Shown piece by piece: positions 50-34,691 of a stretch of DNA of 34,691 nucleotides (its first letter is position 1; each line of letters starts with the position of its first letter). The notes under the pieces are model-generated. The model ran no database searches. It was not told the DNA's origin and worked only from the letters and a program-made list of their open reading frames with translations. The stretch lies in IMG/VR virus record IMGVR_UViG_3300028048_000053, positions 1 to 34,691 of that record; one strand, 5' to 3'. Source of the stretch: a virus. Both the position numbers and the translations under genes were made by a program.

Positions 50-78
50 TTGACATTTCCCGGGCGGTGTGCTATACT
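50..78 (+). promoter_or_regulatory. class I (early) sigma-A-type promoter TTGACA-N17-TGcTATACT; spacer contains CCCGGGCG
   Basis: -35 TTGACA 50-55, extended -10 TGcTATACT 70-78. Confidence 0.7.
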
Positions 79-126
79 ATAATCAGAAAGAGGGAAGAAA
101 CCCTAAAAGAAAAGGAGAGAGTAACA

Positions 127-336
127 ATGAAAAACCATTATGAAGGCAGAGAAATCGCAAGAGCGGTCCACGGTTGGACGATTGAAGAAGAAATTCAATG
201 GGAGATTGACCAATTGGAAACCGAAATCGATGACCACGAATGGTATTGCGACAACAAAGGTATTCCTTATGATGATGCGGAAGAAAAGGCAAGGCTTGCC
301 GAGCTTCGCAAAGAGCTTAAAGAAATCAGAGGATAA
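127..336 (+). CDS. hypothetical small acidic protein (69 aa)
   Basis: AAGGAGA SD 8-9 nt upstream of ATG 127; in frame with ORF 67..336; followed by hairpin terminator. Confidence 0.7.
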   Translation: MKNHYEGREIARAVHGWTIEEEIQWEIDQLETEIDDHEWYCDNKGIPYDDAEEKARLAELRKELKEIRG

Positions 337-352
337 AACCTCTGATTTCTTT
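327..352 (+). terminator. intrinsic terminator CAGAGG-loop-CCTCTG + ATTTCTTT
   Basis: perfect 6-bp stem then T-rich tract. Confidence 0.6.
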
Positions 353-362
353 AAAAAAGTGC

Positions 363-391
363 TTGACAATGCCCGGGCGATGTGCTACAAT
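363..391 (+). promoter_or_regulatory. class I promoter TTGACA-N17-TACAAT, CCCGGGCG in spacer
   Basis: -35 363-368, -10 386-391. Confidence 0.7.
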
Positions 392-401
392 ATAGACAGT
401 T

Positions 402-421
402 AAGGGAGCTGATAAACCCTT
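402..421 (+). promoter_or_regulatory. 5'-UTR hairpin family 1 (stem AAGGG/CCCTT, invariant loop AGCTGATAAA) upstream of SD
   Basis: same element at 1243-1260, 3380-3397, 4928-4947 with compensatory stem changes. Confidence 0.6.
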
Positions 422-444
422 GAAAACAGAGAAAGAGAGAGACC

Positions 445-570
445 ATGAGCATTGAGTATTACGAGATTATGAGCGACAATCTGAGCGACCTGCAGGACTG
501 GGCCGAATATGAGGCCGATATGGCTACCGACCCGTTCCAAGATGCGAACTGGGCCGACCGCATGGAGTGA
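445..570 (+). CDS. hypothetical small acidic protein (41 aa)
   Basis: ATG 445 after conserved leader; stop TGA 568-570; tandem terminators follow; shorter than ORF-track cutoff. Confidence 0.55.
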   Translation: MSIEYYEIMSDNLSDLQDWAEYEADMATDPFQDANWADRME

Positions 571-576
571 AGAGAG

Positions 577-645
577 AGAGGGGGGAAGCAATCCCCCCTC
601 TTTTACTGGCCCGCGCGTTGTCAGGTGCAACGCGCGGATTTTTGC
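577..645 (+). terminator. tandem terminator hairpins (GAGGGGGG..CCCCCCTC + CGCGCGTTG..CAACGCGCG) each followed by T-tract
   Basis: two GC-rich perfect stems followed by TTTT. Confidence 0.6.
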
Positions 646-720
646 TTGCAAGTGGGGTTTCGTGAATTTTTATACAAAAAAAATGAATAAAAATTTATGA
701 AAAAATTTTCACAAAACCCC

Positions 721-749
721 TTGACAAATCGCCCGGGCTATGGTATACT
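721..749 (+). promoter_or_regulatory. class I promoter TTGACA-N17-TGgTATACT, GCCCGGGC in spacer
   Basis: -35 721-726, -10 744-749. Confidence 0.7.
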
Positions 750-795
750 GTAGACAATGAAGGGGGCGAGACCCCCGAGAAAAGGAGTGCCAACT

Positions 796-1080
796 ATGAA
801 TATCCCTTATCATCTGACCATCCGCTCTAATGACCCCGACTGCCCGCAGACCATATGGTGGTTTGAGCAGGACGACTGCCACACCCTGGCCGAGGCCGAA
901 ATGGATGCCCTGGAAGAGGCCCTATATGTCCTCTGGGAGCTCGAACCTGTAGGCCGCGCTCCTGAGTGGATGCGTGAGTTGCGCAAGGTGGGCTGCACCA
1001 ACTTCCGCTACTGCCAGGAAGAGTTTGACGTGGTGCGCTGGGTGGGCGACCTGACCTACGAGGTCATGCTGAGCAGCTGA
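796..1080 (+). CDS. hypothetical protein (94 aa)
   Basis: AAAAGGAG SD then ATG 796, in frame with ORF 757..1080; terminator hairpins 1083-1146. Confidence 0.7.
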   Translation: MNIPYHLTIRSNDPDCPQTIWWFEQDDCHTLAEAEMDALEEALYVLWELEPVGRAPEWMRELRKVGCTNFRYCQEEFDVVRWVGDLTYEVMLSS

Positions 1081-1150
1081 GAGGAGGGGGGCTTCGGCCC
1101 CTCTTTTTTTGGCCCGCGCGCCACCGGGCCTGGCGCGCGGTTTTTGCATT

Positions 1151-1169
1151 ATTGTGCAGTTTGCACAAT
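1151..1169. repeat. perfect palindrome ATTGTGCAgtTTGCACAAT (operator-like) upstream of promoter; second copy at 6701-6719
   Basis: seen directly; both copies sit between a terminator and a TTGACTTTTTCC -35. Confidence 0.6.
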
Positions 1170-1201
1170 TTCAATCACAATTTTTTGTGCAATATGACAT
1201 A

Positions 1202-1230
1202 TTGACTTTTTCCCGTATCCGTGTTATACT
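1202..1230 (+). promoter_or_regulatory. class I promoter TTGACT-N17-TGtTATACT
   Basis: -35 1202-1207, -10 1225-1230. Confidence 0.65.
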
Positions 1231-1242
1231 GTAGACAGTTAA

Positions 1243-1260
1243 GGAGAGCTGATAAACTCC
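1243..1260 (+). promoter_or_regulatory. 5'-UTR hairpin family 1 (stem GGAG/CTCC, loop AGCTGATAAA)
   Basis: covaries with copy at 402-421. Confidence 0.6.
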
Positions 1261-1286
1261 GCAAACAGAGAAAGGGAGAACTTACC

Positions 1287-1490
1287 ATGTGGTATCAGAT
1301 TTGTATTTGTGGCAACGGATATGATGATTATGATGGAAGCGGTTGCGCTTTCTTTGAGAACCACGACAAAGAGACCGCATATAAGGCTTATGAGGTCGCA
1401 AAAGCCCTCTGCACCCTATATCCCGATACTTGGATTGAGTTTCGTGAGGACGGGAGGCTCATTGAGGAGTATAACACCTTTGCCGACTAA
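1287..1490 (+). CDS. hypothetical Cys-containing protein (67 aa)
   Basis: ATG 1287 after family-1 leader and GGGAGA SD; in frame with ORF 1221..1490. Confidence 0.7.
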   Translation: MWYQICICGNGYDDYDGSGCAFFENHDKETAYKAYEVAKALCTLYPDTWIEFREDGRLIEEYNTFAD

Positions 1491-1706
1491 ATCATTGACA
1501 TTTTAAAAGGAGGGGCTTCAGCCCCTCTTTTTTACTGACCCGCGCGTTGTCAGGTGCAACGCGCGGATTTCGCTTTAGCCAGGAGGAATAAGAATTTTTA
1601 TATAAAAAAATCACGTCTTTATGCGAGCTATTATATTCCTAATACTTGCTATTGGTAAAAATTTTTGTTATAATAAATATAGAAAAGCTGGAAAGTGGTG
1701 TTACTG

Positions 1707-2000
1707 ATGCGAGTGATAAAAAAGATAGATGATTTGGGCCGTGTGGCTATTCCAAAAGACATCAGAAAAGCAATGGGATTATTTAGTGGGGATGAAATCG
1801 AACTATTGTTCCAGGAGGAAGAAAAGCAGTTGATTATAAAGCCCTACGTATCAAACTATGCGAAACAGATTACAAAATTAAAAGAGGAAATTGCGGCCGC
1901 TCGGTCAGAGGCCGGTTTAACTGGTGTTGAGGATGTGCTAGACCTACTGGCGCAGGCCGAGGGAAAGCTGACTTCCATCGAATCAGATTTGCAAAAATAA
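1707..2000 (+). CDS. AbrB/SpoVT (swapped-hairpin) family transcriptional regulator-like protein (97 aa)
   Basis: N-terminus MRVIKKIDDLGRVAIPKDIRKAMGL matches the AbrB/MazE N-domain pattern; AT-rich TTGCTA-N17-TATAAT promoter upstream; paralog at 16794. Confidence 0.7.
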   Translation: MRVIKKIDDLGRVAIPKDIRKAMGLFSGDEIELLFQEEEKQLIIKPYVSNYAKQITKLKEEIAAARSEAGLTGVEDVLDLLAQAEGKLTSIESDLQK

Positions 2001-2052
2001 AAAATTTTTTGTATAATAATATTAGAAAAAATGAATAAAGGAAGTTTGTTCG

Positions 2053-2169
2053 ATGACCGTGGAATTAGTAAAAGCTCTTTTATTAATTGCTAAAGTTTGC
2101 ATGTCCTCTCCCAACTGTGAACAGTGCAAAATAAAAGACTTCTGTGGTAAGATGCCTTCTCAATGGTAA
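2053..2169 (+). CDS. possible small Cys-rich peptide (38 aa)
   Basis: AAGGAAG SD 8 nt before ATG 2053; 4 Cys; stop TAA 2167-2169; terminator 2238-2272 downstream; below ORF-track cutoff. Confidence 0.35.
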   Translation: MTVELVKALLLIAKVCMSSPNCEQCKIKDFCGKMPSQW

Positions 2170-2345
2170 GATTTGAGGGTGTTCGACACCGGCCGCGATG
2201 CGGTCGAATTTCACGGGAACAAACGTTCTGGAGTTTTTGTTTTTGAAGACCGGCCGCAGAAGCCGGTCTTTTTTTATCCCGAAACCCTTGACATTTATAT
2301 AAAAGTATGCTATACTATAGTCAAGCAACAAGGGGGCCGCAATTA

Positions 2346-2498
2346 ATGCATACTTATAGAATTTATTTCACTTTTGATTTTGAAAAAGTTACCCATAGCG
2401 TCGAGACTGGCAAGAACGCCCATGAAGCTATCGCCAAATTACAAGAGCGTTTTCCAAAACTTAAAAAAGTTTATTGTTACGAAGAAGAAAATGCTTGA
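2346..2498 (+). CDS. hypothetical protein (50 aa)
   Basis: class I promoter 2288-2316, SD AAGGGGGC, ATG 2346 in frame with ORF 2307..2498; next promoter overlaps stop. Confidence 0.6.
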   Translation: MHTYRIYFTFDFEKVTHSVETGKNAHEAIAKLQERFPKLKKVYCYEEENA

Positions 2499-2559
2499 CA
2501 ACAAGCACAAGATGTGCTATACTACAATCAGAAAGAAAAAAGAAAAGGAGATAATAAAA

Positions 2560-2733
2560 ATGATGACTGTTCGTGAAATGATGGAGTTTCTGTCCCGCTG
2601 TGATGGTGACGACTATGTTCTGCCCCGTTCCGGTTTTGACGAAGAAACTTTTGAGACTGAGCTGGCTGTTCAGGTGGTTGCCCGTGATGGCTCCGGCGTC
2701 ATAGATGGCGTCTACTGGACCGAAGAAGATTAA
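2560..2733 (+). CDS. hypothetical acidic protein (57 aa)
   Basis: AAAAGGAGA SD then ATG 2560; in frame with ORF 2374..2733. Confidence 0.65.
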   Translation: MMTVREMMEFLSRCDGDDYVLPRSGFDEETFETELAVQVVARDGSGVIDGVYWTEED

Positions 2734-2736
2734 AGA

Positions 2737-2766
2737 ATGGGGGAAGAAATTTCCCCATTTTTTTTT
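2737..2766 (+). terminator. intrinsic terminator ATGGGGGAAG..CTTCCCCAT + T9
   Basis: perfect hairpin plus T-tract. Confidence 0.7.
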
Positions 2767-2775
2767 AAAAAAAGC

Positions 2776-2804
2776 TTGACAAATAGCCCGGGGTATGCTA
2801 TAGT
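2776..2804 (+). promoter_or_regulatory. class I promoter TTGACA-N17-TGcTATAGT, GCCCGGGG in spacer
   Basis: -35 2776-2781; -10 2799-2804. Confidence 0.65.
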
Positions 2805-2838
2805 ATAATCAGAAAGCAAGAGAAAAGGAGATACGAAA

Positions 2839-3024
2839 ATGAGCGAGCTGAGAGAAAAACTGATTGACCGCATGATTCGGATTTACGGCTTTGAGAATAA
2901 AATCGTGATTGACTTCTGCCGATGCTGTGAGACTTTTCCGAATGATGAAGCACATGACAAAACCCTGCGGACGCTGGTAATGGTCCACGAAGAGTGTCCC
3001 GTAATTGAGGAGGAGGATGAGTAA
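2839..3024 (+). CDS. hypothetical Cys-containing protein (61 aa)
   Basis: ORF track; AAAAGGAGA SD; hairpin terminators 3005-3085. Confidence 0.7.
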   Translation: MSELREKLIDRMIRIYGFENKIVIDFCRCCETFPNDEAHDKTLRTLVMVHEECPVIEEEDE

Positions 3025-3212
3025 TCCTCCTCATTTTTTGCATAATTATGCGGCCGCGCGCCACCGGCCCTAGCGCGCGGTTTTTGCATAAATATTCACT
3101 TTTCAGCAATTTTTTGTATAAATATTCATTGTAACACTTTGTAACCATTTTCCCAAAAAACTGTAACTATTTTGTTATTGACTTCTGGCTTACTTTGTGC
3201 TATACTTTAATC

Positions 3213-3315
3213 AAGGTTGAGGGGCGAAAACAAGATAACAACAGGGACTTGTAACTGCCCGATAAAGAAAAGATAGAAAAGGACTTTTCCAGCTATCCCC
3301 GCCCCTCAAAAAACT
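3213..3315 (+). ncRNA. candidate sRNA: promoter (TTGACT 3178-3183, TATACT 3201-3206) to structured ~100-nt transcript with no ORF
   Basis: long-range pairing GAGGGGCG(3218)...CGCCCCTC(3298); no start codon or SD. Confidence 0.35.
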
Positions 3316-3379
3316 TGAAAAAAATGAAAAAAAGGCTTGACAAACTCAAAAAGGTATGCTATAATAAGAGCGTAATCAA

Positions 3380-3397
3380 GGAGAGCTGATAAACTCC
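3380..3397 (+). promoter_or_regulatory. 5'-UTR hairpin family 1 (GGAG/CTCC, loop AGCTGATAAA)
   Basis: identical to 1243-1260 element. Confidence 0.6.
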
Positions 3398-3421
3398 ACA
3401 AACAGAGAAAAGGAGAAAATT

Positions 3422-3631
3422 ATGAAGATGCGTGCTACTACTAAGGCGGCTATTCAGGCCCTTATCGACAACAAGGCTGAGGTCTACCGCTGGACTGATG
3501 CCGAGGGATGGAGCGTCATCAACACCCCGGCATATGGCGTGTCCATGAGCACTCTGCGCAAGTACGCCACCTATGACAAGCGGCCCTATGGTGAGGGCGA
3601 GATGCTGACCGTCACGGGGTGGAGGGAGTAA
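3422..3631 (+). CDS. hypothetical protein (69 aa), paralog of 4972-5181
   Basis: ORF track; about 70 percent identity to the 4972 product (MKMRATTKAAIQALIDNK.. versus MKMKITTKKAIQTLIDNK..). Confidence 0.75.
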   Translation: MKMRATTKAAIQALIDNKAEVYRWTDAEGWSVINTPAYGVSMSTLRKYATYDKRPYGEGEMLTVTGWRE

Positions 3632-3886
3632 TCTTTCCACCATATATAGAGGCCATTCCCACTAAGCGAGAAGCCGTGGCCAGGAGGAAATAACGAAAAG
3701 GGATAAATACTCCAAAATGTCAACTTCTCATAGGAGGGGGGCTCTTGCCCCTCTCCTTTTCTACTCACCCTCGCGCTTTCTGACGCCAGCGCGAGGAGTT
3801 TAGATTTATATATAGATTACACAATTTTTACCCTATTTTTTTGTGCATATTGTCTACTTGATTTTTTCCTGCATCTATGCTATACT

Positions 3887-3995
3887 TTAATCATCAAGGG
3901 GCGGTGACGCTGACCGGCGGGAAGCAGATACCAAGGTAGCTACAAAGGAAAACAGAAACACGGCTTGTGAAGACACACCGACAAAATTTTTTGGA
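3887..3995 (+). ncRNA. candidate sRNA cassette (promoter TTGATT 3858-3863 / TATACT 3881-3886, no ORF)
   Basis: promoter consensus then ~100 nt lacking an ORF, ending in a hairpin plus T6. Confidence 0.3.
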
Positions 3996-4047
3996 GAAAT
4001 TCAAAAAACCCCTTGACAAACCCATGAAAGTGTGCTATAATAAAGGC

Positions 4048-4373
4048 ACAAGGTCAAGAGGGGAACCGAACAGGACGAAGTAAGGCACCGCGGATGACCC
4101 GAAAAGCGACGAGAGGTTGATAAAAGCTTGATACCCTCTTGACTGTCCACTTAAATAGCACTTCAACTATCAGGCAGACGGAGGTGTCGGAAAGATGTTT
4201 ACGAGCGGATTTCTGTAGCAACTGAATAAGCTGTAGAAAAACGTAAATGTAGGAACGGAGGCAGCTTCTAATGTATTGGTCTGGATTTGTGTAGCTACAA
4301 TTAAATGATGTGTTTTCGATAGGCCGGGACGATGCTTGCGCCCCGGCCTATCGCCCGGGCAAAAAACTTTTTT
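4048..4373 (+). ncRNA. candidate ~300-nt non-coding transcript (promoter TTGACA 4013-4018 / TATAAT 4036-4041) ending in a 12-bp perfect hairpin terminator (4310-4347) + GCCCGGGC + T-tract
   Basis: no ORF with SD on + strand; the minus-strand ORF 4170..4694 spans promoters and terminators and is judged spurious. Confidence 0.35.
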
Positions 4374-4445
4374 CAAAATACTATTGACAAGCTCGGAATA
4401 ATCTGCTATACTGTATTCAGAAAGAAACGAAAGGGGAATTTCAAA

Positions 4446-4637
4446 ATGTACACACTGAGTATTTACACCTATGAAATCAGCGACTATAACCGCCTTGACC
4501 TGTATATCAGCGGTTGCGAAGCGGCCTATGCCGCTTTCCGTAAGGCTTGCGAGCTTGCCGACCTCACGGGCGCTTTCGTGAGCCTGTGGGATAACGACAC
4601 GGGCGAGGTCGTTGCGGACAATGGGGAGGATGAGTAA
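4446..4637 (+). CDS. hypothetical protein (63 aa)
   Basis: class I promoter 4384-4415; ATG 4446 in frame with ORF 4332..4637; terminators follow. Confidence 0.7.
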   Translation: MYTLSIYTYEISDYNRLDLYISGCEAAYAAFRKACELADLTGAFVSLWDNDTGEVVADNGEDE

Positions 4638-4680
4638 TCCTCCCCATTGTCTACTGGCCCGAGCGCCCACGGCCCAGGCG

Positions 4681-4733
4681 CTCGGTTTTTGCATAAATAT
4701 TCAGTTTTGGGTGAATTTTTGCATAAATATTCA
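4681..4733. repeat. GCATAAATATTCA direct repeats flanking a 12-bp inverted repeat (TTTTGGGTGAAT / ATTCACCCAAAA)
   Basis: GCATAAATATTCA-like copies also at ~3070, 3107, 5520, 5554, 5583. Confidence 0.6.
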
Positions 4734-4801
4734 CCCAAAAATTTTTCAACTTTTTTCACAAAACCTATTGACATTTCAGAAAAACCTGCTATAATAGGTA
4801 G

Positions 4802-4880
4802 TGTCAAGGGGAGAAGAAAACAACCTCTCACAGGCGCGTAACCTGTTGTAAGTAAAATAAAATCTCTCATAAAAATGTAA
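4802..4880 (+). ncRNA. candidate short transcript from promoter TTGACA 4768-4773 / TATAAT 4790-4795 with no ORF
   Basis: hairpin ACAGG-cgcgtaa-CCTGT; no SD or ATG. Confidence 0.25.
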
Positions 4881-4927
4881 AAAACCCCTTGACAATTCCC
4901 CGTAAGTGTGTTATACTTAAACCATCA

Positions 4928-4947
4928 AAGGGAGCTGATAAACCCTT
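4928..4947 (+). promoter_or_regulatory. 5'-UTR hairpin family 1 (AAGGG/CCCTT, loop AGCTGATAAA)
   Basis: identical to 402-421 element. Confidence 0.6.
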
Positions 4948-4971
4948 GAAAACAGAGAAAAGGAGAACGCT

Positions 4972-5181
4972 ATGAAAATGAAGATTACGACTAAAAAGGC
5001 TATCCAGACCCTCATTGACAACAAGACCCCCATTTTCCGCTGGACTGATGCGGACGGGTGGAGCGTCATTGATACCGCCGCATATGGCGTGTCCATGAAA
5101 ACTCTGCGCAAATATGCCACCTATACCAAAACCCCCTGCGAGGGCGGCGAGATGCTGACCGTCATCGGGTGGAAAGAGTAA
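4972..5181 (+). CDS. hypothetical protein (69 aa), paralog of 3422-3631
   Basis: ORF track; family-1 leader; AAAAGGAGA SD. Confidence 0.75.
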   Translation: MKMKITTKKAIQTLIDNKTPIFRWTDADGWSVIDTAAYGVSMKTLRKYATYTKTPCEGGEMLTVIGWKE

Positions 5182-5215
5182 TCCGCCCTCACATATGAAA
5201 GGAGATATATTCGAT

Positions 5216-5419
5216 ATGGAAAACAGCAGAAAGAATACCTACAAGGGAGCTTCCATTTGCACCATCCTCACTATCCTCTTCGTCATCCTCAAACTGACCG
5301 GCGTGATTGCCTGGCCCTGGTTCTGGGTGCTGTTCCCGCTGATTCTTGACCTCGGCCTCGCCCTCATCATTCTGATCGTCATCATGGTCGTCAAGATTAT
5401 CGCCTTGAAACGCAACTGA
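5216..5419 (+). CDS. small membrane protein, 2 predicted TM helices (67 aa)
   Basis: GAAAGGAGA SD; ATG 5216 in frame with ORF 5195..5419; hydrophobic core ICTILTILFVILKLTGVIAWPWFWVLFPLILDLGLALIILIVIMVV. Confidence 0.65.
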   Translation: MENSRKNTYKGASICTILTILFVILKLTGVIAWPWFWVLFPLILDLGLALIILIVIMVVKIIALKRN

Positions 5420-5463
5420 CTACAATTTGAGAGGGGCTTTTGCCCCTCTCCTTTTCTTGCTTC

Positions 5464-6050
5464 AGCACTTTAACGATTTAAAGCGCTGAAGTTCAGCCGG
5501 GCGCCCGCGGTCCAAGCGCCCGGCTTTTGCATAAATATTCAGTTTTCAATGAATTTTTGCATAAATATACATACATTTTCTGCATAAATATTTTCACAAA
5601 ACCTCTTGACAGATTGCACGGGCTATGCTATAATACAATCAGAAAGCAAGAGAAAAGGAGGTAAAAAACATGAAATACTTTATTCACACCTATGACTGGA
5701 ATTTTGATACGATGGAACGGAAGCATGAAGTTAAAGAAATTAACCATCAAGAGCTTGCGGAACTTGTGCAATACCAAGAGGAAACCGCCTTTGACTACAA
5801 GTGGAATGAATTGAAACTTATCAAAATGACTGATACGGAAATGCACTTCGTGCTTAACAAGAAAACCAAATTAAATTATTAATCTTAAAAAAAGGTAAAA
5901 GAGGGGGATTGCTCCCCCTCTCTTTTTAAGGCAAACACTTTAACGATTTAAAGTGCTGAAGTTCAACCGGGCGCTTTCCCACGCAGCGCCCGGTTTTTCA
6001 ATTTAAATGGTTAAAGCGTAATTTTTGCCGCACTTTAACCATTTAAAGTG
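5464..6050. repeat. three copies of palindrome GCACTTTAA-N4-TTAAAGTGC (5464-5489, 5937-5955, 6031-6050)
   Basis: seen directly; each follows a gene terminator. Confidence 0.6.
5670..5882 (+). CDS. hypothetical protein (70 aa)
   Basis: class I promoter 5608-5640; AAAAGGAGG SD; ORF track. Confidence 0.7.
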   Translation: MKYFIHTYDWNFDTMERKHEVKEINHQELAELVQYQEETAFDYKWNELKLIKMTDTEMHFVLNKKTKLNY

Positions 6051-6138
6051 CTAAATCGCTAAATCCCAAAACATAAGTTCTGCTTATACCTGGATTGAAG
6101 TATTAGTACAGCGAATAGATAAAAATTTCAAAAAAGGC

Positions 6139-6167
6139 TTGACAAATTGCCCGGGCTATGGTATACT
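6139..6167 (+). promoter_or_regulatory. class I promoter TTGACA-N17-TGgTATACT, GCCCGGGC in spacer
   Basis: -35 6139-6144; -10 6162-6167. Confidence 0.7.
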
Positions 6168-6198
6168 CTAATCAAGATAAGACAAGGGGGAAACACCA

Positions 6199-6645
6199 AT
6201 GAAGAAAATTACTTGCAATCCTGTTACCACCTTCAAGAACAAGGGCGACAATCGGGAATGTGCTTTCGGCAACTATATCGGCATGAGCAAGGCATATCAC
6301 GATGATTTGAATTGCTTTGACGCTTCTGACTTCGTAAAGGGCGATATGCGGTACTCTGTCAAAGGTGACGGTTTCACTCTTATGAGCGGATATCTTGCCC
6401 CTGGGGCTGATTCTTTCGATGCTATATGGGCCGTGTTCCGTACTAAGGTTCATAGCAACTGTTTCGTCTATGTAGACGCTGATTTCAACGCCTATATGAT
6501 GAACATTGATGAGTTTGAGAGCTTCGTTTATATGTTCGGCTATATGGCAAAGGAAAGCGACAAGAACGGCGGCGGATGGAAAATCCGTTGCAAGCACGAA
6601 AGCAAAAAAATGGTCAGGTGGCTGTCCGAAAGGGTGGCCGCCTGA
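6199..6645 (+). CDS. hypothetical protein (148 aa)
   Basis: ORF track; SD AAGGGGGA; tandem terminators 6635-6700. Confidence 0.7.
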   Translation: MKKITCNPVTTFKNKGDNRECAFGNYIGMSKAYHDDLNCFDASDFVKGDMRYSVKGDGFTLMSGYLAPGADSFDAIWAVFRTKVHSNCFVYVDADFNAYMMNIDEFESFVYMFGYMAKESDKNGGGWKIRCKHESKKMVRWLSERVAA

Positions 6646-6700
6646 CCCCCCTCTTTTTTTGGCCCTCGCGCCACCGGGCCTGGCGCGAGGATTTCGCATT

Positions 6701-6719
6701 ATTGTGCAGGTTGCACAAT
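6701..6719. repeat. palindrome ATTGTGCAggTTGCACAAT (second copy of 1151-1169 operator-like site)
   Basis: seen directly. Confidence 0.6.
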
Positions 6720-6816
6720 TTTTGCCCCGATTTTTTGTGTATATTGCAGGATTGACTTTTTCCCAGAAGTGTGCTATACTTTAAACAATCCAAGAGGAAA
6801 GGAAAGTCGAAAATTG

Positions 6817-7266
6817 ATGCAGACTATTTACTTTGACATGGACGGCACGCTTGCCGACCTCTATAGTGTCTTTAACTGGCTGGGCAAACTGCGCTCTGAG
6901 GATGCAACCCCCTATATGGACGCCAAGCCCTTAATCCGCATGGCTCTGCTTGCCCGCCTTTTGAATGGCCTGCAAAAGCAGGGGTATCAGATTGGGATTA
7001 TCTCCTGGCTCAGCAAAGAATCTTCACGGGCATATGAGGTAGAGGTCTCTATTGCCAAGGAAGAGTGGCTGAAAAAGCATCTGCCGAGCGTGACTTGGGA
7101 TAAGATGCATTTCATTCCATATGGAGTTCCCAAGGCCGAGGCCGCAAACATTCAGCCGTTCGATATTCTGTTCGATGATGAACAAGCCAATATCGAAGCA
7201 TGGGAGCGCGCAGGTGGATGGGGCTTTTCCCCCGATAAAATCTTTGAAACTCTGCGGGGAATGTGA
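6817..7266 (+). CDS. HAD-superfamily hydrolase, 5'(3')-deoxyribonucleotidase-like (149 aa)
   Basis: N-terminal motif FDMDGTLADL matches HAD motif I as in the NT5C family; ATG 6817 in frame with ORF 6769..7266. Confidence 0.6.
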   Translation: MQTIYFDMDGTLADLYSVFNWLGKLRSEDATPYMDAKPLIRMALLARLLNGLQKQGYQIGIISWLSKESSRAYEVEVSIAKEEWLKKHLPSVTWDKMHFIPYGVPKAEAANIQPFDILFDDEQANIEAWERAGGWGFSPDKIFETLRGM

Positions 7267-7375
7267 GGGGGTATATCCCCCTTCACCTCTCGCCCGGGCA
7301 AAAAATTTTTTCAAAATACTATTGACTTTTCAAATAAGATGTGCTATACTACCAATAGAAAGAGAGGTTAGGAAA

Positions 7376-7522
7376 ATGAAAAAGAAAGAAGTTAATGCTT
7401 ATAAGAAAATGACCCCCGAACAGCTTGCGGCGTTCCTTGCGCTTCGCTGCCGTGGCGGCATAGTCCCCGCAAAAAAGGGCAAGGGTAGCTATAAGCGGAG
7501 TGAGTTTAAGAAAGGGGAATAA
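7376..7522 (+). CDS. small basic protein (48 aa)
   Basis: class I promoter 7324-7355; ATG 7376 in frame with ORF 7121..7522. Confidence 0.5.
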   Translation: MKKKEVNAYKKMTPEQLAAFLALRCRGGIVPAKKGKGSYKRSEFKKGE

Positions 7523-7525
7523 AAT

Positions 7526-7720
7526 ATGCAAATATTTGGTATAGACTGGTGTGAAAATTTTTGGGATGGAAATACCTCCCATGTTTGGGGTCGTATTTAT
7601 AAAAGATACAGCCCCTATAAAAAGAAATCCTATTCATATTTCTGGATTCGCCACAAAAAGAAAAACAAGACCTTTTATCGTATTACCAATAATTTTTTCA
7701 TTGAAAGAGGTAAAAGATGA
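7526..7720 (+). CDS. hypothetical Lys/Tyr-rich protein (64 aa)
   Basis: AAGGGGAA SD then ATG 7526; ORF track. Confidence 0.5.
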   Translation: MQIFGIDWCENFWDGNTSHVWGRIYKRYSPYKKKSYSYFWIRHKKKNKTFYRITNNFFIERGKR

Positions 7721-7850
7721 AAAATAGAGTTGCCCTTTTGGGTGACCCTATTTTTCGCCCGGGCGAATTTTTTTTATAAAACCTATTGACAAACTTGGCG
7801 CAATGTGCTATAATCACTATAGAAAGTTAAGAAAAAAGGAGATAATAAAA

Positions 7851-8045: not shown

Positions 8046-8272
8046 CATTATAGGAATCCCGGGCGCTCACCCTCGCGTGCCCGGGCGCCACGCGAGGGAT
8101 TCGGTTTTTTATGCAGTTTTGGCAAATTTTTTGCATAAAAATTCACCCCATAAAATTTTGATTTTTTTCCTAAAAAAGGCTTGACATTTTCATCCCCATG
8201 TGCTATAATGTGTATGCAATCGAGGGAGGGACGCCAACCCTGGTTAGCATTTTTGAAAGGATTTGATGCACT

Positions 8273-9311: not shown

Positions 9312-9326
9312 AAGGAGTTGTGTACT

Positions 9327-21886: not shown

Positions 21887-21890
21887 TCTA

Positions 21891-27825: not shown

Positions 27826-27906
27826 TTTTTTTAAAAAAATAATATATTATATATATACAAGGTAAGAAAAAAATAAAAATTAAATTTTTGAAAGGACTTG
27901 TGAATT

Positions 27907-28320: not shown

Positions 28321-28415
28321 TCCGTAGACCGCTTGAATGGAGAGAGGTTAATCCTCTCTCCATTTGTTTTTTATAAAAAAATATTGTATAATAAGAGTAT
28401 AAGGAGTGATAAAAT

Positions 28416-29192
28416 ATGAAATATAGTATTTCTGGTAGATAGCCCAAAGAATTGTTACAAAAAGCGGATGAAATTTTCATTGAGTACAGAGATAAAGATG
28501 TACTTTTTGATTATGTAGAGTTATATCCCGATAAAAAAATTGTGATGTTTATTCCAAAAGATACAGAAGTAGATTGGGATTTACTTAAAAGTTTTAATGA
28601 AAAACTCAATCTTACCTTGGAGATAGAACAAATTAAAGATGCAGAACTGGTTAATTTTCATTGGTTTTGGCACTTTCCGGTAACTACATATTTTGAATTA
28701 GATGGTATTCTTGCGCTTAATACATCGGAAGTTTTAATTGGTGGGCCATTGTTCTTTGACTTAGAGCGAGTAAAAGAGTTGTGCAAGGATATTGAAATAA
28801 GAGCCGTACCAAATGTTGCCTTTGACGCATATATTCCAAGAACAAATGGCATATGTGGCACTTATATCCGTCCAGAAGATGTGGTAACATATGAACCATA
28901 CATTAACACTCTAGTTTTTAAATATGAAGATCTAAAAGAAGAAAGAATGTTATTCCAAGTTTACAAAGAGGATCAGAAGTGGCCAGGTAATCTATATTTT
29001 TTAATTAAAAATCTCAACAAGCATGTAGATAATAGAGGGTTTGAAGAAGATTTCGCAAGCACTCGCCTCAACTGCCGCCAGACCTGCTGCCGCAATCATA
29101 TATGCCATTTTTGTGAATCTTACATTACTTTTATAAACACCATAGATAAAAATAAAAACTATCTAAAGGAACAATTAAATGACGATAAGTAA
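28416..29192 (+). CDS. hypothetical Cys-containing protein (258 codons) whose codon 9 is TAG
   Basis: class II promoter with AAGGAG-N8-ATG 28416 in the standard position; TAG 28440-28442 in frame; ORF 28452..29192 continues in the same frame with no SD of its own. Confidence 0.55.
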
Positions 29193-30428: not shown

Positions 30429-30556
30429 TTGCTACTGGACAAAAGAGATTAATTGAGTTTCGTTAAAAAACTAGTTTAGCGAAACTCAATTTTCCTTTTT
30501 GATTTTTTATAAAAAATAATATATAATATTTATAGAAAGTTAAGGAGGGAAAAGGT

Positions 30557-30834: not shown

Positions 30835-30863
30835 TTGATTTTTTATAAAAAATATATTATAAT
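30835..30863 (+). promoter_or_regulatory. class II promoter TTGATT-N17-TATAAT + ATATATAGAAAATAAAGAAAGG
   Basis: -35 30835-30840; -10 30858-30863. Confidence 0.65.
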
Positions 30864-30896
30864 ATATATAGAAAATAAAGAAAGGGGAAATGAAAA

Positions 30897-31118: not shown

Positions 31119-32012
31119 ATGCCAAGATATAAAGATGAAACTGGCAATAAGTATGGAAAATTAACCGTTCTATACCCTACCGATAAGAGAAATTCCAAAA
31201 GAGAGATTTTTTGGCATTGTAAATGTGACTGCGGAAATGAGTGTGATGTTTTGGGTAGATTACTGCGAAACGGGAATACTCGTTCTTGTGGTTGTCTAAG
31301 GATTGGCTCAAAAACATTGGATGAAATCGGTAATAGATATGGAAAATTAACCGTAATTTCGTAGGCCAAGGATAAAATTAATAATCATGTTGCGTGGAAT
31401 TGTTTGTGCGATTGCGGAAATAATATTATAGTATCTGGCACAAAATTACGCTCTTAGGAAATCACGGCTTGTCCAACTTGCCGCCAATTGCAAAAGCCAA
31501 AATTGACAGATGTGAATGAACAATATGGTGATCTTACTGTTTTGGAATCTGCAGGACGAGATAAGTATAGAAGATTATTGTGGAAATGTCGATGCTCTTG
31601 CGGAAATATTTGTATTGTTGCCGGCATAGATTTAAGGTCTGGACAAAAAACTAGCTGCGGCTGTAAAAAAACCCTATCTAAAGGGGCAGATAAAATAAGA
31701 CAAATTTTACAAGAAAATAATGTTCATTTTACCTAGGAAAAGACTTTTGATTCGTGTAGATTTCCGGATACCAACTAGCTCGCTCGTTTTGACTTTTATC
31801 TTCCCGAACAAAATGTTTTAATTGAGTATGATGGAAACCAGCACTTTTTTTATACAAATCATCATTGGGATACCAAAGAACATTTTGAATATACAAAAAG
31901 ACATGATGAATATAAAAATCAATGGTGTAAAGAAAACAATATAAAATTAATTAGAATTCCGTATTACGATATAAAGCAAATATCTTATGAAAAGATATTG
32001 GCTCTATTCTAA
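31119..32012 (+). CDS. homing-endonuclease-like protein: three YG.LTV..W.C.C.CGN...SCGC Zn-finger repeats + C-terminal Vsr/DUF559-like PD-(D/E)XK domain (FDFYLP...IEYDG.QH); four in-frame TAG codons
   Basis: single frame maintained 31119-32012 (ORFs 31119..31364 and 31488..31736 share the frame); TAG at 31362-64, 31455-57, 31734-36, 31776-78; no TAA/TGA until 32010. Confidence 0.5.
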
Positions 32013-32512: not shown

Positions 32513-32687
32513 AGATTACTTTATTGTTTCTGAGAATGAGGGCAAGTGTATGATTTGCGGCCATGAGACAAATCTCATAGACCCATGTGCTGAAGCTTAT
32601 CTGTGTTCGCCTGAATGCGAAGAAAAACTCATCCAGATGATGGTAGAGTATGAAAGAGAACATCCGATGGAAATTGATTTTTTATAA
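32493..32687 (+). CDS. possible Cys-rich small protein (start uncertain: GTG 32487, ATG 32493 or ATG 32548)
   Basis: ORF track 32487..32687; overlaps the end of the upstream gene; weak SD. Confidence 0.35.
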   Translation: MDTCGTKDYFIVSENEGKCMICGHETNLIDPCAEAYLCSPECEEKLIQMMVEYEREHPMEIDFL

Positions 32688-32702
32688 AAAATAATATATA
32701 AT
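32674..32702 (+). promoter_or_regulatory. class II promoter TTGATT-N17-TATAAT driving the tRNA cluster
   Basis: -35 32674-32679; -10 32697-32702. Confidence 0.6.
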
Positions 32703-32729
32703 ATATATAGAAAGTTAAGAAAGGAATAT

Positions 32730-32816
32730 GGGTCGGTATCCCGTAGCAGGTAGCGGTTCTGGCTGTAAATCAGGTGTCTAGCGACTCGGTTGGTTCGATC
32801 CCAACCCGGCCCACCA
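32730..32816 (+). tRNA. tRNA-Tyr (GUA), class II long variable arm, CCA encoded
   Basis: manual fold: acceptor GGGTCGG/CCGGCCC, anticodon loop CTGTAAA, variable stem GTC/GAC, T arm GTTGG-TTCGATC-CCAAC. Confidence 0.7.
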
Positions 32817-32909
32817 ATCGCCCTATTGGCAGACTAAAACAGAATCTATGCAATAGTATTGGCGCTGTGTCTACTGATATGGCGTCACTGTATGGTGAAG
32901 GAGATTATT

Positions 32910-33095
32910 ATGCATACCTTTCATTCTCAGGATAAATACAATTTCCATCACAATGGAGATTTTTCCGGTGACGTGATAATCACTAAGGATGATGACACTA
33001 ATTTTGAAATTGAAATTAGTAGTCAAGCTCTTCTTGAATATGCTCGTTATGTAATTGACTCTGTTCTTACAGAAAAAATTGAAGACATTATGTAA
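32910..33095 (+). CDS. hypothetical protein (61 aa) between tRNA-Tyr and tRNA-His
   Basis: GAAGGAGATTATTATG; in frame with ORF 32859..33095. Confidence 0.55.
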   Translation: MHTFHSQDKYNFHHNGDFSGDVIITKDDDTNFEIEISSQALLEYARYVIDSVLTEKIEDIM

Positions 33096-33096
33096 T

Positions 33097-33174
33097 GGTG
33101 GGAGTAGCTTAGTTGGCTAAAGCACCAGATTGTGGCTCTGGGGACCGCGGGTTCAAGACCCGTCTCTCACCCCA
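33097..33174 (+). tRNA. tRNA-His (GUG) with encoded G-1 pairing to C73, CCA encoded
   Basis: manual fold: acceptor GTGGGAG/CTCTCAC, anticodon stem CCAGA/TCTGG with loop TTGTGGC, T arm GCGGG-TTCAAGA-CCCGT. Confidence 0.7.
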
Positions 33175-33215
33175 TTTATGCCTCCTTAGCTCAGCTGGTC
33201 AGAGCACGCGGCTGT

Positions 33216-33682
33216 TTGCCTGACCTTACATTCTTGATGAAAAAGAAAAATGAATAGTAAGCAAAAAGGCAATATTACTGAATTAGAAACAATGTTAGCG
33301 TTTTTAAAACATGGTTTTAATGTTTTAACTCCTTATGGAGATTGTGAAAGATATGATTTTGTAGTAGACGCTAACAGAAAGTTTTATCGAATTCAGAGTA
33401 AAACAGCAAGCACAGAAGACGATGGAGCTTCGTTTAAGTTTTCTTGTAGGAGCTCAAATCGTCAAGATGGTAGAATAGTCCATCACCAATATACAAAAGA
33501 TGAAATTGACTATTTCGTAACTTCTTTTGAAGGAAAATGTTATTTAATTCCAGTTGAAGAATGTGGTTGTGATAAACGACTTCGTCTTTTTCCTACTAAA
33601 AATGGACAAACAAGAGGAATAAGCTGGGCAAAAGATTATGAAATGGAGGAAGTAATCAAGAATTGGTAAGCTGATGTGCAAG
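33216..33682 (+). mobile_element. 467-bp insertion in the tRNA-Asp anticodon loop carrying an endonuclease-like ORF; group-I-intron-like boundaries (5' exon ends in T, insertion ends in G)
   Basis: boundaries inferred from tRNA cloverleaf; only ~47 nt of the insertion lie outside the ORF, so the intron class is unresolved. Confidence 0.5.
33250..33669 (+). CDS. putative homing endonuclease of the PD-(D/E)XK / Hjc-like fold (139 aa) encoded inside the tRNA-Asp insertion
   Basis: pattern E11..LK.GF.V..P.GD..RYDFVVD....FYRIQSK resembles small restriction-endonuclease-fold nucleases; ORF track. Confidence 0.45.
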   Translation: MNSKQKGNITELETMLAFLKHGFNVLTPYGDCERYDFVVDANRKFYRIQSKTASTEDDGASFKFSCRSSNRQDGRIVHHQYTKDEIDYFVTSFEGKCYLIPVEECGCDKRLRLFPTKNGQTRGISWAKDYEMEEVIKNW

Positions 33683-33906
33683 CAACCGCGGTGTCGTAGG
33701 TTCGAATCCTACAGGAGGCGCCAGGCCCGTGGATCCGAGGGCACAGTATCGGACAAAATACGCTGGCATATCGTAGAGAGTGCGCAATCTCAAATATGCG
33801 ATACCGCTATTCGTTGGGGCGGGATATAAATGCAGCAACGACAGGTCGCTTGAACCTGATTGATCCTGTCGGCGGTACGGGAGAAGAAAAGCATCCGCTG
33901 TTTTAT

Positions 33907-33982
33907 AGGGGATTGGTGTAGTAGGGAGCATCTGCGCCTCCAAAGCGTTAGAGAGAGGGTCCGAGTCCTTCATCCCCTGCCA
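33907..33982 (+). tRNA. possible tRNA-Trp (CCA), weak (several G-U pairs, T-loop TCCGAGT)
   Basis: acceptor AGGGGAT/ATCCCCT perfect, discriminator G, CCA encoded, anticodon loop CTCCAAA; D and T arms non-canonical. Confidence 0.35.
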
Positions 33983-34256
33983 ATAGTGAGTCGTTTAAGC
34001 AAGACTGCGGCCATGGTAACGCAATGTTGGGTAGCGACCGGCACCAACCTCACTATTATATGCCTCGGTAGTTTAGCAAGTAAAACGGTGGACACATATT
34101 TTTATGTGGCTGCAAGTGGATGGAGCGTGGCCGTCTCGGGGCACCAACGGCAAGGTGGCGTAGCGTGAGCTACAAGTGCGAATGACTGAACGCACTAAAA
34201 ACTGGCAATGGGCAAGCCTTCTGTATAGTAAAACCAAGAAGTCTATTTTTTAATAT

Positions 34257-34331
34257 GCCGGGGTCATATAGTGGTTAGTATGCGGAACTGATAATTCCGT
34301 CATGGCAGTCCGACTCTGCCCCCTGGCACCA
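34257..34331 (+). tRNA. tRNA-Ile (GAU), CCA encoded
   Basis: acceptor GCCGGGG/CCCTGGC, anticodon stem CGGAA/TTCCG with loop CTGATAA, T arm GGCAG-TCCGACT-CTGCC. Confidence 0.7.
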
Positions 34332-34413
34332 TAAATCTCAGCTGAGATAGGGATAGCTCTGCGTTTGGAGTAGCATTTCAGTCGTCGGGGGCGGAGCGCT
34401 GAGATTTTTATAT

Positions 34414-34489
34414 CCCGCTGTAGCACAATCGGTCAGTGCCGGCAACTTATAATTGTCAGATGCTGGTTCAAATCCAGACAGCGGGACCA
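34414..34489 (+). tRNA. tRNA-Ile (UAU) (AUA decoder), CCA encoded
   Basis: acceptor CCCGCTG/CAGCGGG, D arm GCAC..GTGC, anticodon stem GGCAA/TTGTC with loop CTTATAA. Confidence 0.55.
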
Positions 34490-34569
34490 AAAACCTTGTT
34501 AGTTAGTGGAGAATAGCAGCGAGGTTTGCATTAAATTAATAAAGACACATACAGCAATTTATACTTGAA

Positions 34570-34640
34570 AGTATATTAGTCCAATGGTAGGACGCAAAAG
34601 TTTTAATTTTGAAGAATTGGTTCAAATCCAATATTTACTT
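34570..34640 (+). pseudogene. degenerate tRNA-like sequence (anticodon loop GTTTTAA, Lys-UUU-like) lacking CCA, with an acceptor mismatch
   Basis: D stem GTCC/GGAC, anticodon stem CAAAA/TTTTG, T arm ATTGG-TTCAAAT-CCAAT; acceptor AGTATAT/ATTTACT has 1 mismatch. Confidence 0.3.
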
Positions 34641-34691
34641 TTTGGTGTCTTGATTTTTATAAAAAAATATAATATAATAATTATAGAAAAG

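Follow-up and report, generated by a model that had tools for sequence, protein, structure and literature searches.

Two promoter families partition the left end of a large uncultivated phage genome

The stretch analysed here, hereafter the window, is the 34,691-nucleotide virus record IMGVR_UViG_3300028048_000053 (positions 1 to 34,691), and our subject is the two families of promoters, class I and class II, that divide it. Through an identical protein of 560 amino acids (aa), encoded at 26143-27825, the window was matched to contig ERZ27252073 k141_3465 (171,985 bp); a position in the window is about 6 higher than the corresponding position in the record, so that the window is the left end of that contig. 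The sequence belongs to an uncultivated large phage. Its relatives occur in gut and rumen metagenomes, where many of their contigs are binned with Clostridia, and strong ribosome-binding sites of the AAAGGAG type indicate a Firmicute host. The plus strand carries all predicted genes except those in an island of 29% GC content at 20.2-22.3 kb, and every window promoter described below lies on the plus strand. The class I region (1-18800, GC content 44-51%) is made up of about 41 cassettes, each with a promoter, a short gene or small RNA, and a terminator; class II promoters start at 19648 and continue to the window end.

Class I promoters are far more numerous than chance allows. The signature TTGACA-N14-TGnTATAMT, with up to two mismatches, has 42 matches against 0.61 expected from shuffled sequences, and 39 of them fall on the plus strand within 50-19676. 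In a generic promoter scan, 32 sites match the two hexamers at 11-12 of 12 positions; every one is on the plus strand, and only two depart from 17-bp spacing. The curated set comprises 41 class I promoters between 50 and 18231. Their -35 hexamer is exactly TTGACA in 30 of the 41, TG stands at positions -15/-14 in 40, and the -10 hexamer reads TATACT in 24 and TATAAT in 14; the spacing is 17 bp throughout, apart from two promoters with 16 bp. Mean GC content is 0.46 in the spacer and 0.30 in the discriminator.

Class II promoters have a different build. Their core, TATAATATATATAGAAA, is found 13 times with up to three mismatches, against 0.27 expected. The ten promoters between 19648 and the window end share the consensus TTgAtT-TTTataAAAAAATAttA-TATAAT-ATaTATA-GAAa, that is, TTGATT, an all-A/T spacer of 17 nt, TATAAT, ATATATA and GAAA. 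GC content is 0.02 in the spacer and 0.02 in the discriminator, TTGACA occurs in none of the ten, and TG in one. The -35 is TTGATT in five copies and TTGnnn or TTTAyT in the others; within this phage, the spacer is conserved more than the -35. The UP-element consensus of E. coli, matched with up to two mismatches, was found at 14 of 40 class I promoters, at none of the ten class II promoters and at 0.7% of random positions.

A sequence-only reading of the window had proposed that two families partition it, with about 45 promoters on the left, ten copies of a second kind on the right, and sigma-A-like -35 and -10 elements in both. The partition is strict: class I promoters are absent past 18231, including in an extra 9 kb of the same contig, and all 26 copies of a palindrome, GCCCGGGC, lie left of 18957 (371-18957; e.g. 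14147, 15482, 18170), in the class I region. The proposed number on the left is reached by adding to the 41 class I promoters two degenerate ones (1646, 1989) and two at the boundary (19102, 19173). The ten class II copies begin, at their -35, at 19648, 22373, 23704, 25874, 27822, 28364, 30499, 30835, 32674 and 34650, at most about 15 nt from where they had been placed, and both classes combine sigma-A-like hexamers at 17-bp spacing. The asserted invariance through the first 15 transcribed nucleotides was overstated: TATAAT-ATATATA-GAAA is exact in five of the ten copies, carries one to three mismatches in four and is absent at 28364, while past about +5 the leader is merely purine-rich (GAAAATAAAGAAAGG or GAAAGTTAAGAAAGG).

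Class II promoters with their leaders occupy 19648-19696 (-35 TTGCAA; followed by the gene at 19711-20085), 22373-22421 (-35 TTGAAA; fused to a hairpin upstream), 23704-23752 and 25874-25922 (-35 TTTATT and TTTACT, each within the T-tract of an upstream terminator), 30499-30547 and 30835-30883. Further promoters of the class are found at 32674-32722, preceding a tRNA cluster in which tRNA-Tyr begins at 32730, and at 34650-34691, where the window end truncates the promoter. The copy at 27822-27870 is a variant with TATTAT and ATATATACAAGG, and that at 28364-28411 has the upstream half of class II (TTGTTT-17-TATAAT) with a short, different leader and is fused to the upstream terminator. In the window, class II would drive a syntenic core block of genes and the tRNA cluster.

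Degenerate and partial forms of class II are found further left. The promoter at 1646-1690 (TTGCTA-17-TATAAT-AAATATAGAAAAG) precedes an AbrB/MazE-domain gene at 1707-2000, and that at 1989-2035 (TTGCAA-17-TATAAT-AATATTAGAAAAA) precedes the gene of a 38-aa peptide at 2053-2169; the degenerate class II motif that the sequence-only reading had reported ahead of these two genes is present at 1669-1685, with one mismatch, and at about 2012. In the boundary zone between the classes (18800-19647), the final two GCCCGGGC sites are accompanied by hairpins and by two direct repeats. Its two promoters, 19102-19140 and 19173-19211, are of the same type, with the class II upstream half TTGATT-TTTATAAAAAATTATGT-TATAAT and no ATATATAGAAA block; a terminator at 19222-19242 follows the second. 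The tandem pair stands just 5' of the direct repeats, which are about 120 bp long (19272-19393 and 19490-19611), 81-90% identical and 218 bp apart, and each promoter has a short predicted transcript flanked by terminators. The relative L085 shows a similar tandem arrangement at its own class boundary.

A typical class I unit has a constant order of elements: terminator hairpin, GCCCGGGC palindrome, A5T8A5 UP-like tract, (C)CC-TTGACA, 14 nt, TGn and TATA(C/A)T. The typical UP-like sequence is AAAAATTTTTTTTAAAAACCCC-TTGACA. In about 13 units GCCCGGGC lies 29-33 nt 5' of the -35, directly after the terminator hairpin and before the UP-like tract. Most of the copies stand between such a hairpin and the tract. 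It mostly occurs as CGCCCGGGCG; CCCGGG has 29 copies against about 3 estimated by chance, all in the class I region, and four GCCCGGGC copies fall within promoter spacers. The palindrome may be a protein-binding or recombination site. With 41 promoters and 67 terminator-like hairpins, against 25 expected, placed at the contig end, the class I region has the composition of a takeover cluster.

The array opens with promoters at 50-78 (TTGACA-17-TATACT, TGn), 363-391 (TTGACA-17-TACAAT, TGn), 721-749 (TTGACA-17-TATACT) and 1202-1230 (TTGACT-17-TATACT, with a TTTTGTGCA element upstream). A CAGAAAG leader follows the promoters at 2495-2523, 2776-2804, 4384-4412, 5606-5634 and 18203-18231, the last of the array, and a TAGAAAG leader follows that at 7322-7350. 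Spacers of 16 bp are those of the promoters at 4768-4795 and 9801-9828; the promoter at 12117-12145 is the sole one without TG, and that at 14180-14208 has the complete A5T8A5 UP-like tract. The promoter at 16736-16764 precedes a second AbrB/MazE-domain gene (16794-17075). A subclass with a weak -35 consists of 9061-9089, which has TTTTGTGCAAAAT upstream, 10346-10374, 13106-13134, whose unit includes tRNA-Lys (13240-13314), and 13463-13491. An intermediate promoter at 11353-11381 combines TTGACA with an A/T spacer (TTTATAAAAAAATATGT) and TATTAT, and a hybrid at 7786-7845 joins a class I -35, spacer and TGn to a leader of the class II type (CACTATAGAAAGTTAAGAAAAAAGGAG). Additional class I promoters are located at 2288-2316, 3337-3365, 4889-4917, 6139-6167, 6752-6780, 8181-8209, 9181-9209, 12553-12581, 13606-13634, 14799-14827, 15182-15210, 15515-15543, 16408-16436, 17137-17165 and 17569-17597.

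Nine class I promoters have no open reading frame (ORF) within 150 nt. ORF-less stretches follow the promoters at 3178-3206 (stretch 3207-3330, a probable small RNA), 3858-3886 (3887-4010; the promoter has a TTGATT -35 and TTTTGTGCA upstream), 4013-4041 (4042-4380), 4768-4795 (4796-4885), 9061-9089 (9090-9180), 10756-10784 (10785-11340, within about 600 nt without an ORF), 13106-13134 (13135-13460), 13463-13491 (13492-13600) and 16253-16281 (16282-16400). The sequence downstream of these promoters is GC-rich and hairpin-forming, and three of the units begin alike with ATAATTGTTCCAAGGGGGAAGGCAAACAGCG. Rfam has no match to the ORF-less units, and at the gathering threshold it recognises only tRNAs in the window. 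The nine ORF-less units probably encode phage small RNAs. Four class I mRNAs (392-447, 1231-1289, 3370-3424, 4922-4974) carry a common conserved leader, in which a small hairpin, AAGGG-AGCTGATAAA-CCCTT or GGAG-AGCTGATAAA-CTCC with two compensatory pairs, is followed by AAACAGAGAAAGGGAGA and ATG. The repeats TTTTGCATAAATATTCA and TTTTTGTGCAAAAT stand 5' of some class I promoters, among them the ones whose -35 is weak (CTTGCT, TGCAAA, TTGTAA), at 1160-1200, 3050-3130, 4680-4740, 5520-5590, 6700-6750, 8100-8150, 9030-9060, 10320-10345, 13070-13105 and 13410-13460; they look like operator or activator sites of a class I sub-class.

The genes of the two regions differ in length: the median is 71 aa for those of class I and 124 aa for those on the right. 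A Pfam or PHROG assignment is lacking for most class I proteins, as is a relative even inside the clade to which the phage belongs. Those that could be assigned are two proteins of the AbrB/MazE fold and two winged-helix paralogs (genes at 9327 and 13714), together with an HD protein, a DnaQ-like exonuclease and a nucleotidase. Paralog pairs inside the array are 3422/4972, 9327/13714 and 9854/12613.

The conserved block after the -10 is a composite of three layers and not one additional recognition element. Class II continues after its -10 with ATATAT-AGAAAG, and the corresponding class I sequence is often ATAATC-AGAAAG; A(G/C)AA(A/G) stands at an equal distance from the -10 in 16 of the 41 class I promoters. 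Class I leaders of the class II kind include ATAATCAGAAAGCAAGAGAAAAGGAG, at 2799 and 5629, and GAAAGCAAGAGAAAAGGAG, and in the hybrid at 7786 the class I elements are followed by the full leader CACTATAGAAAGTTAAGAAA. Transcription usually starts with a pyrimidine at -1, a purine at +1 and G at +2; bases 7 and 8 after the -10 are A and G, a placement that fits this preference. The AGAAAG start and the C-free purine/Shine-Dalgarno leader thus appear to be a shared module for start-site choice, escape and translation. Being used by both classes, this module is not a class II-specific signal. The initial transcribed sequence is known to control escape at strong phage promoters (PMC12464699, PMC5961368).

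What sets class II apart is the all-A/T discriminator and spacer alone. Plain base composition was ruled out as the cause of their A/T content, since the driven genes reach 57% GC; promoters of 0-2% GC beside such genes imply that the A/T composition is selected. The T-rich 5' part of the promoter often doubles as the U-tract of the preceding terminator, whose GC-rich perfect stem ends at most 8 nt from the -35. Of 112 copies from relatives, 41 show such a fusion, compared with 41 of 1000 control positions; it is also seen in four of the ten window copies and in only one of the 41 class I promoters.

The block had been taken in the sequence-only reading to suggest a phage-encoded factor or a requirement set by modified RNA polymerase. 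What stands of that proposal are the distinct and conserved families, and the downstream block does recur elsewhere, in six additional class II copies at 36.9-40.6 kb of the same contig, beyond the window, and across the whole clade. A block confined to the window, which would have refuted that reading by its own terms, is thereby excluded. What falls is the single extra element, since the AGAAAG/leader part is common to 16 of 41 class I promoters. Early promoters of T4 also have an extended consensus and yet are read by the host polymerase, so that an extra consensus by itself needs no phage factor.

The distribution of class II beyond this phage was followed with the IMG/VR query pattern ATAAAAAA-N5-6-TATAATATATATAGAAA, which has 25 fixed bases. 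The matches listed come from more than 116 IMG/VR stretches, most of which belong to contigs of 60-400 kb. In a collection of 185,579 species genomes the exact pattern turns up in 35 stretches, and several of the contigs concerned measure 139-176 kb. Nearly all of the latter matches are metagenome-bin contigs assigned to very different taxa, which we read as mis-binned phage; a general bacterial promoter was rejected as an explanation of class II, the species-genome matches being almost all in metagenome-assembled bins. Just one exact match falls in a cultured isolate, Hominicoprocola fusiformis CLA-AA-H188 contig_6 (locus L143, at about 6403-6432). Present once and surrounded by DNA of 49% GC, it could be a host clue or a transferred phage gene.

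Positions that the query left free are conserved as well. Across 115 distinct copies the -35 has the frequencies T 1.00, T.97, G.89, A.88, T.73, T.77, exactly 17 bp from TATAAT, and the 15 nt after GAAA are purines, essentially C-free. The same loci contain 317 further TTGAnn-17-TATAAT sites outside the search pattern, which after the -10 have the profile A.82, T.70, A.63, T.74, A.74, T.85, A.75, n, A.84, A.84. Homologues (30-64% identity) of the class II genes at 23766, 24666, 26143, 27907, 29179 and 30126 occur in 9-25 relative loci; the phage shares these block genes with the loci and therefore belongs to their clade. AbrB-like homologues were found in one relative locus only. The exact class I signature has 22 scattered single matches in IMG/VR, on unrelated small contigs, and no array elsewhere; it is a generic consensus and not a shared array. 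Three relatives, L085 (a 176.6-kb contig), L032 and L020, have a TTGACA/TGn array with UP-like tracts first and class II after it, and the two-class order thus recurs in relatives that differ in GC content and sequence.

Class II sites of relatives precede genes of nucleic acid and cofactor metabolism. A Pfam scan covered 28 of the longest first genes after such sites and recognised RNA ligases, NAPRTase, nicotinamidase, a cytidylyltransferase-family (NMNAT-like) protein, NAD-dependent DNA ligase, Thg1, PARG, an exonuclease, metallophosphatases and two copies of a 300-aa sigma-70 factor; no virion-component families were recognised among the Pfam matches of these 28 genes. An 815-aa first gene after a class II site resembles a major-vault-protein-like protein, and a clade protein of about 800 aa (L071, L061, L056, L119) has major-vault-protein shoulder and repeat domains (PF11978, E 8e-22); its gene follows a class II promoter in one relative or more. 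The clade also encodes NAD-salvage enzymes, PARG, Thg1, and BrxL-like and Ro/TROVE-like proteins.

The sigma factor of the relatives is 300 aa long and has regions 1.2, 2, 3 and 4 but not region 1.1. Its best matches among solved structures are SigA chains of 368-390 aa (7ckq_F, 371 aa; 7l7b_F, 390 aa), at E ~1e-80. The family comprises more than 120 clusters at 77-95% identity, some on contigs of up to 199 kb, with 7,788 matches at E <1e-60. Against SigA, region 2.4 reads TYATYW instead of TYATWW and region 3.0 reads IPANMVE instead of IPVHMVE, while TRERIRQ of region 4.2 is kept. Sigma loci fetched independently of the motif have 1-5 class II sites per 3.9 kb on clade contigs and none in others; the loci lacking them are high-GC and come from other phages. 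Many relatives have a class II promoter immediately before the sigma gene, and host sigma-A must therefore be able to start class II. A relative with the two-class layout, IMGVR_UViG_3300024270_000013, has the sigma gene. The factor was found in L181-L186, L188-L190 and others (P0001-P0120), on large phage contigs and frequently downstream of a tRNA and of a class II promoter, and some copies are labelled 'RNA polymerase primary sigma factor' by the Joint Genome Institute (JGI).

No sigma, anti-sigma or RNA polymerase domain was detected in the 60 window proteins scanned, and tblastn with the relatives' sigma gave no match in the 43.7 kb of this phage examined, nor in L001-L004. Nine longest-ORF proteins of relatives, drawn from 62 distinct ORFs of at least 450 aa and scanned against Pfam, contained no polymerase domain. 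The histidine-to-asparagine (H-to-N) change in region 3.0 was considered as an explanation for the loss of TG in the class II promoters of this phage and rejected, because sigma-bearing relatives keep TGn in class II.

Both classes are of the sigma-70/sigma-A type, and we consider it fairly probable that class I is a lineage-specific, immediate-early array of 'maximal' promoters that resembles a takeover module, and class II an ancestral early or middle promoter of the whole clade. The assignment to sigma-70/sigma-A follows from the TTGAtt -35 at exactly 17 bp across the clade copies. Host holoenzyme would read both classes. Class I would serve about 40 tiny genes, orphans for the most part, and probably some nine small RNAs as well, in the manner of a host-takeover module built of repeated cassettes. 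Class II would drive conserved early or middle genes, which in relatives include those for NAD salvage, RNA and DNA ligases, Thg1 and the sigma-A-like factor; it would often do so from a promoter fused to the preceding terminator, with the T-tract supplying the -35 and the proximal spacer. Since class I relies on UP, -35 and TGn, it should recruit polymerase fastest, and a factor directed at sigma region 4 or at the carboxy-terminal domain of the alpha subunit could shut it off. Class II relies on a perfect -10 and very easy melting, and so could persist. The two designs probably differ in kinetics and regulation; it is the gene content, together with the systematic difference in kinetic determinants, that suggests a temporal split. 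An inhibitor targeting UP, by analogy with the G1 gp67-type factor (PMC12282133), would selectively silence class I, and no gene for an inhibitor of UP promoters was identified here.

The anatomy of the promoters, their statistics, their clade-wide conservation and the gene content were observed directly. Several points weigh against the interpretation placed on them. The timing, the start sites, the form of the polymerase and any shut-off are deduced from sequence. Spacer and discriminator are near-identical in more than 100 divergent genomes, which exceeds the contact needs of sigma-A and would be expected if a further conserved protein read both elements. The lineage L177 keeps the block after the -10 while its spacer drifts. 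The clade sigma is very conserved, with a mean column identity of 83% (alignment A3), and the search for factors in this phage covered 43.7 kb of 172 kb.

The strongest rival to the sigma-A reading makes class II the cognate set of the phage sigma-A-like factor. Host sigma-A would start these promoters weakly, that of the sigma gene among them, the phage sigma would then take the core, and class I would go off; a preference of that sigma for the all-A/T spacer, discriminator and start block would create positive feedback and separate phage from host transcription. We hold this possibility to be rather unlikely. It explains the near-invariance of positions that sigma-A leaves unread, as well as the pattern of L177. 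A complete SigA-like factor with regions 1.2-4 is at hand in more than 120 clusters, far more conserved than the class II block proteins, which are about 30-64% identical between this phage and its relatives; its motif-independent loci have class II sites within the clade and none in other phages, its regions 2.4 and 3.0 depart from SigA with TRERIRQ retained, and the gene is found in a relative of the same two-class layout. The sigma is, however, absent from the 43.7 kb examined and from the 60 window proteins, and its gene itself stands behind class II, which requires host sigma-A to recognise these promoters. Moreover, its -35 and -10 recognition helices are almost those of SigA, so that no new specificity is evident, the H-to-N change in region 3.0 is not coupled with TG loss, and the factor could equally serve a late promoter class. 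It is conceivable, if doubtful, that phages of 130-200 kb, apparently of gut Clostridia, possess a semi-orthogonal system, in which a SigA paralog would be made from, and then act on, a near-invariant 45-nt all-A/T promoter tuned to phage sigma over host SigA, with a lineage-specific maximal SigA array serving the immediate-early takeover genes and later being silenced.

History offers another explanation, also one that we hold to be rather unlikely: the left 19 kb would be a hyperplastic accessory region whose cassettes are homogenised by recombination and spread with their genes, the remainder would be ancestral, and both classes would fire together from host polymerase. Orphans make up most class I genes, paralog pairs occur in the array, and the recurring succession of terminator, GCCCGGGC and UP-like tract is reminiscent of PeSL cassettes in T4-type phages (PMC2839356, PMC4122927). 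The class I flavour is found as an array nowhere else in IMG/VR, where it has the 22 single matches only, and kayviruses manage with one early sigma-70 class for 81% of genes and no middle class (PMC7698491). The recurrence of the two-class order in L085, L032 and L020 weakens this explanation, since it argues for a functional distinction that is maintained, and the classes are systematically set apart by all the kinetic determinants: UP, -35, TGn and the GC content of the discriminator. That a DNA-binding regulator reads the palindromic TTTTTATAAAAA spacer or the ATATATA block, switching class II on or off, is improbable. Candidates would be the two AbrB/MazE-fold proteins (genes 1707 and 16794), the winged-helix paralogs of the class I region (9327 and 13714) or a host nucleoid protein, and the spacer is indeed more conserved than the -35 in this phage, where the AbrB-like gene at 1707 itself follows a class II-like promoter. 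Against such a regulator, AbrB-like homologues occur in one relative locus while the motif is clade-wide, and the spacer is not conserved in L177. It is least of all to be expected that class II serves a phage RNA polymerase, either single-subunit and T7-like or multisubunit, and resembles a -35 and -10 by accident. The conserved block is long (about 45 nt) and has TATAG at the presumed start, but TTGA exactly 17 bp from a perfect TATAAT in 115 copies is the signature of sigma-70 regions 4.2 and 2.4, and scans of the 60 window proteins and of nine proteins of relatives detected no polymerase domain. The clade also encodes a sigma factor, which implies use of the host core polymerase. A T7-like promoter suggested by CACTATAGAAAG at 7815 was rejected because the -35 TTGA is conserved at 17 bp.

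The left half of the window has no megablast match to the 50,697 phage records of INPHARED (left 12 kb searched), the one match of the right half is a stretch of 299 nt within a mobile endonuclease gene, 74% identical to Enterococcus phage EFP01, and no INPHARED phage is close to the window at the DNA level. One window protein is 21-23% identical to proteins of Enterococcus myoviruses (Herelleviridae), and the 560-aa protein, as a single-sequence query, found no relatives in IMG/VR. The matching endonuclease ORF (33250-33669; PD-(D/E)XK, PF11645, E 5e-31) is carried by an insert that splits a tRNA-like gene at 33181-33725; no other stretch matches a cultured phage at the nucleotide level. In-frame TAG codons occur in the ORFs 28416-29192 (one) and 31119-32012 (four), and several on the minus strand of 20180-22340; one of the TAG-containing ORFs is GIY-YIG-like and another resembles a zinc-ribbon/endonuclease. 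TAG terminates just one of 62 called genes, and public gene calls continue past the TAGs, giving proteins of 258 aa and 297 aa. Reassignment of TAG is probable here, yet none of the seven window tRNAs has a CUA anticodon. The 29%-GC island (20180-22340) breaks the otherwise plus-strand genome directly after the first class II gene. It contains minus-strand genes, including one for a DUF6291 protein according to public calls, a 22-bp tandem array of about seven copies (20198-20347) and repeats of the TACAAAA type (21240-21520). The island may represent an iteron-bearing origin or the insertion of a mobile element.

The analysis provides a promoter map for a phage group without a cultured member, counting about 41 early units and no fewer than 16 class II units, besides probable small RNAs. 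It shows one 45-nt promoter nearly unchanged in more than 100 divergent genomes of large gut and rumen phages, alongside a conserved SigA-like factor, and raises the question whether the spacer, the discriminator and the first transcribed bases provide specificity for a phage sigma or kinetic tuning for the host polymerase. The class II motif is a sharp marker for members of the clade in metagenomes and for mis-binned phage contigs, and both promoter families are candidate strong parts for Clostridia genetics.

Both classes have counterparts in well-studied phages. Early promoters of T4 are 'uber' promoters that combine UP, -35, TGn and -10 with further consensus regions, and unmodified host polymerase reads them at once, outcompeting host promoters (PMC2988021). 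Class I is like them element for element, and class II shares with them an extra consensus without a new polymerase, although it is without TTGACA, UP and, in this phage, TGn. The phage differs from T4 in its Gram-positive host (Shine-Dalgarno AAAGGAG, TATACT -10) and has no homology to it; an Alt-like modifier was not found in the data examined. PeSL cassettes of T4-type phages consist of a stem-loop terminator and an early promoter that flank small variable ORFs in hyperplastic regions (PMC2839356, PMC4122927). The class I junction of hairpin, GCCCGGGC, UP-like tract and promoter has the same composite build and is repeated more than 20 times around orphan genes; its sequence and the phage group are different, and recombination of cassettes is hypothetical here. 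Promoters of the T5 N25 type are used by host polymerase alone and are conserved from about -50 to +20, and their initial transcribed sequence sets the efficiency of escape (PMC12464699, PMC5961368). By analogy, the AGAAAG leader might affect escape in the present phage.

The Herelleviridae (SPO1; Kayvirus vB_SauM-515A1; Listeria phage CKA15) have genomes of 125-170 kb and Firmicutes hosts, and sigma and anti-sigma factors govern their later switch (PMC7698491, PMC12282133, PMC7414437). Their early promoters read TTGACW-17-TRTGn-TATANT with a UP element, TATACT being common, and the terminal early genes peak first (PMC7698491, PMC12282133). CKA15 has ATGxTATACT and two sigma-A-like early sub-classes, with and without UP (PMC12282133). 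The many tiny genes at the contig end, each with a strong sigma-A promoter and a terminator, are like the takeover modules of these phages; the similarity to Herelleviridae sequences that was seen is weak and covers one protein (21-23% identity) and, in DNA, 299 nt in the endonuclease gene. SPO1 consensus sequences are AGGAGA-17-TTTnTTT for middle and CGTTAGA-18-GATATT for late promoters. The late promoter of kayviruses is TGTTATATTA, with no -35 (PMC7698491). Class II, TTGAtt-17-TATAAT, matches neither the SPO1 gp28/gp34 consensus sequences nor the kayvirus TGTTATATTA, and lacks the marks of a phage-sigma promoter, namely a non-sigma-A consensus or a missing -35. In the SPO1 cascade, gp28 and then gp33/34 redirect the host core polymerase after a sigma-A-dependent early phase (PMC13401047); the clade sigma is a close SigA look-alike, unlike those divergent factors. 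Class I and class II are thus a well-defined new example of a known phage strategy, and not a new kind of system.

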